Positions 13,969 through 17,415 of a stretch of DNA of 55,048 nt are shown here, piece after piece. A program made the translations under genes and the position numbers. Numbering within the stretch: position 1 is the first letter of the stretch; each line of letters begins with the position of its first letter. Under the pieces are notes generated by a model. The model did not search any database, was not told the origin of the DNA, and saw only the letters and a program-made list of their open reading frames with translations. The DNA is from Candidatus Paceibacter sp. (GTDB taxonomy: Bacteria; Patescibacteriota; Patescibacteriia; Magasanikbacterales; UBA922), in assembly GCA_020725175.1 (NCBI GenBank), contig DYFM01000009.1, forward strand, positions 1-55,048. Reading direction: 5' to 3'.

Positions 13969-16900
13969 TCAAATCACAATCGACACCAACTTTCCTTTCA
14001 CATAAATCACCTTCTTCGGTTCCTTCCCTTCCAACCACTTCGCTACATTTTCCTGCTTGAGTGCCAACTGTTTCACTTCTTCTTCATCAACATCAACGGC
14101 AACATCAATCGTCCCTCGCAATTTTCCATTTACCTGAATGGCAATTGTTACATTGTCAATTGTAAGGTACTGTTCATCACACATCGGCCAACCGGAACGA
14201 GCGATAGATTGCCCATACCCAAGCTGCTGCCACAGTTCCTCTGCAATATGTGGCGCAAATGGTGCCAAAAGCTGAATCAGTGATGCGTATGCTGATTTAG
14301 AAATAGTCTCCGCTTTCATCCACTCATTGGTCAATTCCATCATTTTAGCAATTGCCGTGTTAAACCGCATTTCATCAATATCTTCACTAACTTTTTTTAT
14401 GGTTTGATGTAATGTCTGTAAAACCTTCTTTTCGTTTTCAGCACCTTCTTTTACTTTTCCTTGCAAATTCCATACCCGATCCAAAAACCGTCGTACCCCA
14501 ATCAACCCGTTGATATCCCATTCCACTGCCTGATCAAATGGACCCATAAACATAATATATGTCCGCAAAGTATCAGCACCAAATTGCTCTACCATTTCAT
14601 CCGGATTCACCACATTTCCTTTACTCTTACTCATCTTTTCTCCACCTTTTGCAAGAATCATGCCATGACTGGTTCGTTTGTTGTATGGTTCCTTAAACGG
14701 CACCACACCGATGTCGTACAAAAATTGATTCCAAAAACGGGAGTACAATAAATGTAAAACAACGTGCTCCATACCACCATTGTACCAATCTACCGGTCCC
14801 CAATATTTCATTGCTTCAGGAGATGCCAAGGCCTCAGAATTATTCGGATCCATGTAGCGTAAAAAGTACCAACTTGATCCGGCCCAGTTTGGCATAGTGT
14901 CAGTTTCTCGCCGCGCTTCTCCGCCACATTTCGGACAAGTCGTCTTTACCCAGTCTTCCATCGCAGCCAGCGGTGATTCCCCTGTATCTGTTGGTTGATA
15001 TTTTTCTACTTGCGGCAAGGTTAATGGCAATTGATCTTCTGGAAGCGGAATCCAGCCTGTTGGTTCAACATTTTTTTGAACAATAGGTTCATTTGTTGAA
15101 CAAAAATGACTTACCTCAGGCTCAGCAATAATAATATTTGCCCCCAACTTCGTATGAAAAATTTTCTCTTGACCTTGGGGGACAACCGGATGGTCTTTAT
15201 CGACTATTACGACCCACTCTTTTGCCAATGAACGAATATCATCAAAACTAAATTTCCAATCACAGCTTTTTTCAACCGGCTCACGGCGTTTATCGTTAAA
15301 AGTAGGCTCTGTAAAACAGTCTACCAACACTACTTTTTCTACTGACTCCTGAAGATTTACTTGTTCTAAAAGTTTCATGACTACTGCCCCACCTAAACTA
15401 TGAGCAACAACAATAGTGTTTTTGTCTAACACACACTTCTGTTTCAAATATGCAACCTGTTCTTCAATATTTGGTGCGTCTGAATTTGGAAGAGATGGGT
15501 AAGAAACCTCATGCCCTTTATCTTCCAGACTCTTCTTAAGTTCAATAAAAAAATCTTCTCGTGCAGTCGGATTGAAACCATGAACAAATACGTATTTATA
15601 CTTTTTATTTTCACACTGATCGCACTTAACCAACGGAATCGGCTCCCCCCAATATCTTTGTCGAGAAAATACCCAATCTCGGAGCTTGAACTGTACTTTT
15701 CGTTTTCCCACACCTTTTTCTTCAAGCCACTGAATCATGGTTTCCTTTGCTTGGGGTGTTTTTAGATCATTTAGAAATTCTGAATTGATGGTAATACCTT
15801 CGTCAGAAAAACAATCATTCTTCATGGATAATTGTCGCCAAACATATTTGAAATTCGGTAAATTTAAAAACTCAACCATACTATCTTTTTCTATCCAAAC
15901 AGCTGTATGATTTTTTATTTCTTCCTCATTGGGTTTTTCATACTCACCATCTATCAACTCAAAATATAATCCATGACCAATTGCATATCGATTTTCATCT
16001 TTATGACGTGCAAAAAAAACATTATGGTTTTCTCCACCGACAGATCGCACAAATTTAATATTCTTATATCCTGTTTCTTCACGAATTTCACGCATTGCCG
16101 CTTCCACAATATCCTCACCCTTCTCTACTCCACCAATAATACCAGTGTGCCAACCAAATTTCTCCCAATCAAGACATAAATATGTATCATCTTGCCAATG
16201 TTTTACTATCGCATTAATAGTGTGCCTTTTTAACACCGGTTTATCAGGTCGATACGCATCATCAACTGTATCATTAGCATGAAAAAAGGCCACCACTTGT
16301 TTAATTGGAATATTATATTTTTTAGCAAACTCATAATCCCTCTCATCATGCGCCGGCACCGCCATAATCGCTCCGGTTCCATACGTAGCCAGCACATAAT
16401 CAGCCACAAAAATTGGAATTTCTTCCTCTGTCGCCGGATTGATCGCTTTCAAGCCTTTCAATTCAACCCCGGTCTTTTCTTTCTGCAATTCCGTCCGCTC
16501 CAAATCAGACTTTAACCTTGCCTTCTCAACATAGGTATGTACTTCGTCAACATTTTTAATTGTTCCTTGTTCCTTGTTCCTTGTTCCTTCGAGGAGCTGT
16601 GCGACGAGTTCATGTTCCGGCGCCACAACCATGTACGTCACCCCAAACAAGGTATCTGGACGAGTCGTAAAAACTTCAAGCTCACCAATTTCGCCTTTAT
16701 TTGAACTTAAAACTTTAAACTTTATACTTGCTCCCGAAGAGCGCCCTATCCAATTTTCCTGCTGTGTCCGTGCCATAGGGATATAATCCACTTCATTCAA
16801 TCCATCAAGTAAACTATCGGCGTATTTGGTAATGGCGAGCATCCACTGTTCTTTATCGCGTTTTTCTACCGGACCACCACAGCGTTCACACGTTCCATCG

Positions 16901-17415
16901 ACCACTTCTTCATTAGCGAGACCAATCTTACAGTTCAAGCACCAATTAATCGGCATGTTTTTCTTGTAGGCTAACCCATGTTTGTAGAGTTGCAAAAAAA
17001 TCCACTGCGTCCATTTGTAGTACGCCGGATCAGTCGTATCCACCATGCGTGACCAGTCAAACCCAAAACCGAGCGACTTGAGTTGGCGGGTAAAATTGGC
17101 AATATTTTCAGCCGTCACCTCAGCCGGAGGTCGTCCGGTTTTAATCGCGTAATTTTCTGTCGGAAGTCCAAACGCGTCAAACCCGATCGGATAGAGAACA
17201 TTTTTTCCTTCCATTCTTTTTTTACGAGAAATCACATCCATGGCAGTAAATGGCCGCGGATGCCCAACATGAAGTCCTGCTCCCGATGGATACGGAAACT
17301 CAATCAGCGCGTAAAATTTTTCTTTACTTTCATCAAGATCAGCACGATACGTTTGCTGTTCATCCCAATGCTTTTGCCATTTTGGCTCTATTTCTTTTGG
17401 GTTATAAGGTTGCAT
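13969..17415 (-). CDS. leuS: Leucyl-tRNA synthetase, enlarged (1148 aa) by inserted Nudix and alpha/beta-hydrolase domains
   Basis: HVGH (HIGH), KMSKS, FTTRPDTLFG, GTGAIMAVPAHDERD, LRDWVFSRQRYWGEPIP and C-terminal IQVNGKLRG motifs. Confidence 0.97.
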   Translation of the reverse strand: MQPYNPKEIEPKWQKHWDEQQTYRADLDESKEKFYALIEFPYPSGAGLHVGHPRPFTAMDVISRKKRMEGKNVLYPIGFDAFGLPTENYAIKTGRPPAEVTAENIANFTRQLKSLGFGFDWSRMVDTTDPAYYKWTQWIFLQLYKHGLAYKKNMPINWCLNCKIGLANEEVVDGTCERCGGPVEKRDKEQWMLAITKYADSLLDGLNEVDYIPMARTQQENWIGRSSGASIKFKVLSSNKGEIGELEVFTTRPDTLFGVTYMVVAPEHELVAQLLEGTRNKEQGTIKNVDEVHTYVEKARLKSDLERTELQKEKTGVELKGLKAINPATEEEIPIFVADYVLATYGTGAIMAVPAHDERDYEFAKKYNIPIKQVVAFFHANDTVDDAYRPDKPVLKRHTINAIVKHWQDDTYLCLDWEKFGWHTGIIGGVEKGEDIVEAAMREIREETGYKNIKFVRSVGGENHNVFFARHKDENRYAIGHGLYFELIDGEYEKPNEEEIKNHTAVWIEKDSMVEFLNLPNFKYVWRQLSMKNDCFSDEGITINSEFLNDLKTPQAKETMIQWLEEKGVGKRKVQFKLRDWVFSRQRYWGEPIPLVKCDQCENKKYKYVFVHGFNPTAREDFFIELKKSLEDKGHEVSYPSLPNSDAPNIEEQVAYLKQKCVLDKNTIVVAHSLGGAVVMKLLEQVNLQESVEKVVLVDCFTEPTFNDKRREPVEKSCDWKFSFDDIRSLAKEWVVIVDKDHPVVPQGQEKIFHTKLGANIIIAEPEVSHFCSTNEPIVQKNVEPTGWIPLPEDQLPLTLPQVEKYQPTDTGESPLAAMEDWVKTTCPKCGGEARRETDTMPNWAGSSWYFLRYMDPNNSEALASPEAMKYWGPVDWYNGGMEHVVLHLLYSRFWNQFLYDIGVVPFKEPYNKRTSHGMILAKGGEKMSKSKGNVVNPDEMVEQFGADTLRTYIMFMGPFDQAVEWDINGLIGVRRFLDRVWNLQGKVKEGAENEKKVLQTLHQTIKKVSEDIDEMRFNTAIAKMMELTNEWMKAETISKSAYASLIQLLAPFAPHIAEELWQQLGYGQSIARSGWPMCDEQYLTIDNVTIAIQVNGKLRGTIDVAVDVDEEEVKQLALKQENVAKWLEGKEPKKVIYVKGKLVSIVI
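16560..16587. repeat. Perfect heptamer repeat (TTGTTCC)x4 inside leuS
   Basis: Encodes GTRNKEQGT in frame. Confidence 0.95.

Follow-up and report, generated by a model that had tools for sequence, protein, structure and literature searches.

The leuS gene and its nested domains

The DNA analyzed here, hereafter the window, is a stretch of 55,048 nucleotides (nt) from Candidatus Paceibacter sp. (assembly GCA_020725175.1, contig DYFM01000009.1, positions 1 to 55,048). Its leuS gene, which encodes leucyl-tRNA synthetase (LeuRS), contains a serine hydrolase domain nested in the hairpin of the second zinc knuckle (ZN2) of the synthetase. The gene was a single continuous open reading frame (ORF) on the minus strand (13969..17415), whose product had 1148 amino acid (aa) residues. 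TIGR00396 identified it as a bacterial-type LeuRS with 990 bits in three pieces (cut-off, 548), and it was the sole LeuRS over that threshold in the 1.24-Mb, 98%-complete genome. The HVGH and KMSKS motifs, the CP1 editing motifs TTRPDT and HDERD and both zinc-knuckle pairs were all found. When the whole protein modeled with AlphaFold2 (AF2) was searched with Foldseek, the top match was the LeuRS of Thermus thermophilus (2BTE), and the core also matched the LeuRSs of Escherichia coli and Neisseria gonorrhoeae. The features of the gene are as follows.

13969..17415, minus strand: leuS, LeuRS (TIGR00396, motifs, Foldseek)
15058..15612, minus strand: nested YdeN/RBBP9-type alpha/beta serine hydrolase, aa 602-786 (PF06821, AF2, Foldseek, insert-free relatives)
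15391..15405, minus strand: nucleophile elbow AHSLG, Ser673 codon at 15397-15399 (alignment, likeness to ML-005)
15190..15201, minus strand: D739-K-D-H742, altered acid region after domain strand beta5, the canonical beta7 (alignment)
15106..15108, minus strand: catalytic His770 in SHF (alignment)
15613..15624, minus strand: first ZN2 knuckle C598-D-Q-C601, directly before the insert (alignment, AF2 strands)
14926..14937, minus strand: second ZN2 knuckle C827-P-K-C830 (alignment, translation)
15796..16263, minus strand: Nudix domain at the CP1 exit, aa about 385-540, Nudix box at 16066-16134 (PF00293, E 2.4e-10)

Similar to the canonical LeuRSs of T. thermophilus (2BTE/1H3N) and E. coli (4AQ7), the window LeuRS possesses the common core, the ZN1 and ZN2 Cys residues, the CP1 motifs, HIGH and KMSKS. 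Different from them, it contains 185 extra residues where they have a plain hairpin turn and a Nudix domain at the CP1 exit where they have none. The hydrolase insert (aa 602-786, window positions 15058-15612) lies at the very tip of the ZN2 hairpin and is preceded by CDQC and followed by GW. It starts after the second Cys (plus one residue) of the first ZN2 knuckle and ends at the conserved GW; the junctions read ENKKYKYVFVHG at its start and VSHFCSTNEPIVQKNVEPT at its end, which is followed by GWIPLPEDQLPLTLP. These boundaries were assigned because insert-free relatives read straight through the hairpin. The ZN2 Cys residues 598, 601, 827 and 830 were kept in 127 of 130 close LeuRSs. Three LeuRSs (P0012, P0013, and P0241) lacked all four ZN2 Cys residues and still had the hydrolase at the same hairpin. 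Thus, zinc binding is not required for the insertion to be tolerated.

The second nested domain of the window LeuRS is a Nudix domain, which Pfam placed at aa 422-513 with the Nudix box GGVEKGEDIVEAAMREIREETGY. In relatives, the CP1-exit site alternatively held HAD, Ham1, a second Nudix or the serine hydrolase domain. An earlier reading, made from the letters of the window alone (hereafter the sequence-only reading), had reported two unrelated enzyme domains in this LeuRS, one of them an insert of ~180 aa at the CxxC knuckle between 15075 and 15605, in one frame of 1148 aa with Ser673, a downstream His and DKDH. Its span falls within 15058-15612, the translation contains these residues with the His at 770 and DKDH at 739-742, and PF00293 confirmed that the Nudix domain is also real.

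Family and fold of the insert

The residues 602-786 form a complete, independently folding alpha/beta serine hydrolase of the PF06821 family that is nested in an otherwise intact LeuRS. The PF06821 (Ser_hydrolase) match spanned aa 609-765 with 33.4 bits (cut-off, 22; E 5.5e-8). YdeN of Bacillus subtilis (1UXO) was matched with an E value of 3.4e-11 by the single sequence and of 3.7e-48 by a profile. When aa 602-786 were compared with the CP1, YbaK/ProX, AlaX, and Dtd editing or deacylase families, their only Pfam matches were to alpha/beta hydrolase families.

The AF2 model of the whole LeuRS, built with an alignment of 113 sequences, had a mean predicted local distance difference test score (pLDDT) of 92.5 and a predicted template modeling score (pTM) of 0.85, and the insert region was confident. 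The strands 595-597 and 788-790, the two arms of the hairpin, were paired around the insert in one continuous chain. The domain modeled alone had a pLDDT of 96.4, a pTM of 0.92 and six beta-alpha units. In the Foldseek search with the domain, 1UXO was matched with template modeling (TM) scores of 0.83/0.81 and a root-mean-square deviation of 2.5 Å and the human RBBP9 structures 7OEX and 2QS9 with a TM score of 0.83, and other alpha/beta hydrolases were well behind. At about 180 aa, the insert has the minimal, lid-less alpha/beta-hydrolase fold. The sequence-only reading had named a YdeN/RBBP9-like hydrolase and had listed the lack of an alpha/beta-hydrolase fold as the finding that would speak against it; Pfam, the 1UXO match, AF2 and Foldseek all agreed with the name, and the fold was present.

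YdeN (PF06821/COG3545) is the most similar known protein by both sequence and fold, with a lid-less domain of ~180 aa and the same Ser and His positions. Different from the insert, YdeN is free-standing and has the canonical S-x-x-D acid, whereas the insert is nested in LeuRS, has His at the acid position and Asp three residues upstream of it, and contains an extra conserved F-x-D-x-x-R-P loop. RBBP9 shares the fold with an identity of only about 19%. RBBP9, a serine hydrolase, cleaves aromatic residues from N termini and strictly requires that the alpha-amine be free (PMC8866121). The residues Ser76, Tyr99, and Glu108, which anchor this amine, had no confident match in the insert, where Leu674 and Phe701 were found instead and the Glu108 loop differed. 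RBBP9 is also listed as an activating enzyme of valacyclovir, an L-valyl ester (Shenoy, 2020, cited in PMC7730578). The third relative is ML-005, a YdeN-family esterase derived from a metaproteome, whose Ala-His-Ser-Leu-Gly elbow is identical to that of the insert (PMC6119806). ML-005 acts on short-chain (C4) esters, and its Ser-Asp-His triad was proven by mutagenesis (PMC6119806). Different from the insert, ML-005 is secreted and free-standing and has the canonical Asp.

Catalytic residues and the shifted acid

The related domains that were aligned numbered 146 and included 23 LeuRS inserts at site A, 33 LeuRS inserts at site B and 67 stand-alone proteins. Site A is the ZN2 hairpin, site B is the CP1 entry between the linker strand and the CP1 editing domain, and a third site (C) is the CP1 exit. 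The column of Ser673 contained Ser in 23 of 23 site-A inserts, 33 of 33 site-B inserts and 65 of 67 stand-alone proteins, and A-H-S-L-G around it has the small-x-Ser-x-small pattern of a nucleophile elbow. His770, which lies in the loop after the last strand, was invariant in all 146 domains.

The column of the canonical acid varied with the group. It was D in 67 of 67 stand-alone proteins, D or E in 29 of 33 site-B inserts, and F, Y, H, E, and others at site A. The window LeuRS has His742 at this position and lacks the S-x-x-D pattern. Three residues upstream, the column of Asp739 contained D or E in 22 of 23 site-A inserts and 23 of 33 site-B inserts, and Ser in the stand-alone proteins. The replacement at 742 matters because the D-to-N substitution at the canonical acid of ML-005 (D164N) abolishes its esterase activity (PMC6119806). 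The sequence-only reading had noted DKDHPVVP in place of SxxDPxVP and had suspected an altered triad; the alignment bore this out, with His742 in place of Asp and with Ser673 and His770 kept. Moreover, the nested domains shared conserved residues specific for their clade, which were Q653, F706-x-D708-xx-R711, W720, F722, and E776-P777.

These comparisons suggest that the second acid arose first and that the original acid was lost later in the ZN2-site lineage, an order that looks like an active-site migration caught in progress. Asp739 is a possible substitute for the lost canonical acid. The nested hydrolase with its shifted acid is real, conserved and probably active.

Distribution and hosts

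A word-indexed search with the insert region identified 14 other LeuRSs with the same domain, and the named ones were from Magasanikbacteria. When the insert alone was the query, 1.84 billion representatives were searched exhaustively and 854 hits were obtained. About 60 of the best 150 of these 854 hits were long proteins, mostly LeuRSs with the domain at site A or site B. The other hosts among these long proteins were ValRS, AlaRS, SecA, TsaD, Der/EngA, Met-tRNA formyltransferase (Fmt), and UvrB. The literature that was searched contained no report of this kind of hydrolase within LeuRS.

The frequency of the domain in the class was assessed with 201 genomes drawn evenly, in which a copy in an ORF of at least 900 aa was counted as nested. 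A family member was found in 96 of the 201 genomes and a nested copy in 29 (14%); the remaining 86% were without a nested copy. Of these 29 nested copies, 28 were in LeuRS, at site A, site B or the CP1 exit, where the window LeuRS has its Nudix domain, and the exception was in a glycosyltransferase. One LeuRS possessed hydrolase copies at two sites. Stand-alone hits were about equally frequent in genomes with a nested copy (8 of 28) and without one (67 of 172). In the window's own genome, a weak second PF06821 match (24 bits, E 2e-5) was found in a 264-aa frame on another contig (C33:28115-28561, L010).

The domain tree consisted of two well-supported clades, of which one was mostly stand-alone and the other (79 rows) was mostly LeuRS inserts, with the non-LeuRS hosts scattered inside the latter. 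The site-A inserts formed essentially one sub-clade, plus one pair nested among the site-B inserts.

Stand-alone genes of the family were not found to adjoin leuS at any of the 20 loci inspected, and 19 of these 20 genes were not beside any aminoacyl-tRNA synthetase gene. At one locus (L021:7216-11249), a 184-aa stand-alone Ser_hydrolase ended 3 nt before a 1158-aa IleRS-like gene that contained a nested His_Phos_1 domain. Outside this set, at L070:1605-5694, a LeuRS with the hydrolase at the CP1 entry and Nudix at the CP1 exit had a stand-alone Nudix gene directly upstream; its gene call, P0028, was truncated, and the frame was open from LeuRS residue 1. Eight proteins that began with the domain had suggested that some LeuRSs are split into two genes, the second beginning with the hydrolase, and the one case examined was a truncated gene call.

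The same hydrolase was also found in free fusions with Nudix, Ham1/ITPase, HD, and peptidase S51 domains. Such free two-domain proteins were L063 (445-aa frame), L064 (336-aa frame), P0109, P0128, and P0154. These fusions with Ham1, Nudix, HD or S51 suggest a functional guild that is independent of LeuRS.

Turnover of the insert among related LeuRSs

The 120 LeuRSs closest to that of the window contained Nudix and hydrolase, Nudix only, hydrolase only or neither, the last being 810-842 aa long. Some close LeuRSs held HAD, methyltransferase or Ham1 domains instead. On a core tree of 130 close LeuRSs, computed from 828 core columns, the presence or absence of the hydrolase required 23 changes, of which at least 13 were forced by well-supported branches. 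The presence or absence of Nudix required 31 changes on the host tree and was independent of the hydrolase. Among 63 LeuRSs with an insert at site A, the mean identity was 64% in the core and 36% in the insert, and the two were uncorrelated (Spearman -0.04). Moreover, the sliding identity between some LeuRS pairs was a mosaic along the gene.

The window LeuRS (P0001) and P0201 were 74% identical in the core and 20% identical in the insert, and at least two divergent hydrolase types therefore occupy the same hairpin. In P0201, P0177, P0198, P0247, P0237, and others, the ZN2 hairpin contained a divergent alpha/beta-hydrolase with VLxxHG...GKGHF, which had Pfam hits to Hydrolase_4/LIDHydrolase. 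The cores of the LeuRSs with this second type were about 70-74% identical to that of the window LeuRS. P0233 had an unrelated insert of 132 aa in the same hairpin.

No direct or inverted repeats, the signature of mobile DNA, were found to flank the insert borders. The G+C content at third codon positions was 0.27 for the hydrolase insert, 0.23 for Nudix and 0.41 for the LeuRS core, and the genes of the window ranged from 0.16 to 0.46.

The turnover, the uncorrelated identities and the mosaic profiles indicate that the hydrolase insert behaves as an exchangeable cassette that is often gained, lost or replaced among close relatives. Homologous recombination in the flanks, which are highly conserved (..C on one side and GW.P.PE..LP.ELP on the other), would carry the cassette from one leuS allele to another. 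Such recombination would explain why the same site is used repeatedly and why LeuRS is the favored host. The sequence-only reading had offered a recurrent domain-insertion hotspot as one of its explanations. The hotspot is strongly supported: the same hairpin holds two hydrolase types, the 132-aa insert or nothing in close relatives, and the same hydrolase clade occurs at two other LeuRS sites.

Function of the nested hydrolase

The reading that we favor, to which we give about an even chance, is that the domain is an autonomous esterase cassette carried by LeuRS. The domain would be active as an esterase or as a hydrolase of the aminoacyl type, with Ser673 and His770 as catalytic residues and Asp739 in place of the lost canonical acid, and would act autonomously on a soluble small-molecule ester. 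Retained activity is favored by the Ser and His kept across the 146 domains despite a mean identity of about 36%, and by the conserved residues specific for the clade. Autonomy is favored by the hosts other than LeuRS, the free fusions and the similar frequency of stand-alone hits in genomes with and without a nested copy. The repeated fusion and co-nesting with Nudix, HAD, Ham1, and HD domains suggest a shared nucleotide-linked task, and the hydrolase would probably belong to the same nucleotide-linked "house-cleaning" guild as these domains. LeuRS would mainly be a tolerant, constitutively expressed carrier. An aminoacyl-ester hydrolase is chemically plausible because the activities known in the family are those of a short-chain esterase (ML-005) and of an enzyme that cleaves next to a free alpha-amine (RBBP9).

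The CP1 editing motifs were intact in 64 of 66 LeuRSs with the hydrolase and in 64 of 64 without it. This argues against the hydrolase replacing a decayed CP1 site as a general rule. In three hydrolase-bearing LeuRSs, P0004, P0007 (and P0005), the T-rich motif was degenerate, with DSIPQT or TTWPHT in place of TTRPDT, and their CP1 editing may be impaired. The genome encoded both Dtd and Pth, and the hydrolase is thus not standing in for the absence of either. Together, the intact CP1, Dtd and Pth, the domain-free relatives, the hosts unrelated to tRNA and the lack of stand-alone genes beside leuS at the 20 loci argue against a necessary role of the domain in LeuRS proofreading. The other explanation of the sequence-only reading, a possible cis-acting deacylase or editing function, is somewhat weakened by the intact CP1 motifs, by Dtd and Pth and by hosts such as SecA, UvrB, Der, and TsaD, although the chemistry of the family keeps it plausible.

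Several observations weigh against the autonomous cassette. To our knowledge, no substrate is known for any bacterial member of the family. The canonical acid is missing, and given the effect of its D-to-N substitution in ML-005 (PMC6119806), the domain may lack activity or may rely on a Ser-His dyad. The recombination route is one that we infer from the mosaic identity only. The bias of the nested copies toward LeuRS, the three LeuRS sites and the clade-specific conserved surface could equally reflect a function linked to LeuRS. In addition, the free-amine aminoacyl substrates of RBBP9 (PMC8866121) are chemically close to aminoacyl-tRNA and aminoacyl-AMP.

These points lead to the alternative that the domain is an accessory of LeuRS, which hydrolyzes, in cis or nearby, aminoacyl esters or anhydrides that the synthetase makes or binds, and complements CP1 editing. 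Its targets would be tRNA-Leu charged with the wrong amino acid, non-cognate aminoacyl-AMP that has been released, or aminoacyl-nucleotide poisons such as mimics of leucyl-adenylate, and the co-nested Nudix, HAD or Ham1 domain would handle the nucleotide part. It is consistent with the finding that all but one of the nested copies in the unbiased sample of class genomes were in LeuRS, at three sites and in one LeuRS twice, and that the domains nested in LeuRS group in a separate clade, which has conserved residues of its own. Other aminoacyl-tRNA synthetases and Met-tRNA formyltransferase are among the rarer hosts, and one stand-alone copy lies 3 nt upstream of the IleRS-like gene. The structural neighbor RBBP9 accepts only acyl substrates whose alpha-amine is free (PMC8866121) and is among the listed activators of valacyclovir (PMC7730578). 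However, the domain is optional: relatives with up to about 74% core identity are without it, as far as a nested copy goes so are 86% of the class genomes, and the CP1 motifs are intact whether it is present or not, with Dtd and Pth encoded as well. SecA, UvrB, Der, TsaD, and the glycosyltransferase are also hosts of this clade, nearly all of the stand-alone genes inspected (19 of 20) were away from any synthetase gene, and spread by homologous recombination alone can yield the host bias. We consider the accessory role the less likely alternative.

A bolder form of the LeuRS-linked function, which we consider unlikely, is that the LeuRS of Patescibacteria has acquired a third hydrolytic site, a YdeN/RBBP9-type serine aminoacyl-esterase with a relocated catalytic acid that acts with Nudix, HAD or Ham1 and is swapped as a cassette under conflict-type selection. 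Its task would be to clear non-cognate aminoacyl-adenylates or mischarged tRNA, or to detoxify antibiotics that mimic leucyl-adenylate.

The domain might also be catalytically dead and kept as a structural, regulatory or binding module, or be a tolerated remnant on the ZN2 hairpin. Position 742 is His in the window LeuRS and F, Y or H in most site-A inserts, the D164N substitution kills the homologous esterase ML-005 (PMC6119806), and the insert evolves faster than the core (36 vs. 64% mean identity). Nevertheless, Ser673 and His770 are invariant in all 23 site-A inserts despite that low identity, and Asp or Glu is kept at 739 in all but one of them. A decaying domain would not be expected to lose its acid and yet keep the other two residues in each of its members, and we regard a dead domain as improbable.

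Finally, we give hardly any credence to a chimeric assembly or to an intein-like element that is excised from the protein, because well over 60 distinct LeuRSs from many assemblies and sources, dozens of them independent assemblies, share this architecture, the frame is continuous, AF2 folds an unbroken chain in which the hairpin strands pair on either side of the insert, and neither Pfam (without a Hint match) nor the junctions (C/ENKK and EPT/GW, without Cys, Ser or Thr on the N side or His-Asn on the C side) show signs of an intein. The identical 1148-aa protein was recorded on 3 contigs. The sequence-only reading had named an assembly artefact and post-translational removal as findings that would overturn it; weighed by sequence, neither was upheld.

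Implications

Aminoacyl-tRNA synthetases are among the most conserved enzymes, and extra domains in them usually signal new functions. The YdeN-family hydrolase and the synthetase with nested domains are each already known, and the window LeuRS joins them as a variant of both. Similar to the window LeuRS, the case noted by Kantor et al. (2013; PMC3812714) concerns nested enzyme domains in a class Ia synthetase from the same bacterial radiation. Different from the present analysis, that remark is a single sentence about IleRS, which covers no serine hydrolase, LeuRS, insertion site, turnover or catalytic residues.

The hydrolase belongs to a group of optional enzyme cassettes in the LeuRSs of Patescibacteria that are gained, lost and swapped among related bacteria. 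Here, surface loops of an essential synthetase carry an esterase that is apparently active and is often accompanied by nucleotide pyrophosphatases, and this esterase is swapped like a cassette across a large and poorly understood bacterial radiation. The permissive insertion sites of LeuRS provide protein engineers with a ready map. If the domain is a passenger, it would be a natural example of how ultra-small genomes nest whole enzymes in essential genes. If it acts on aminoacyl-adenylates, aminoacyl-tRNA or synthetase poisons, it would represent a new form of translational quality control or self-defense.

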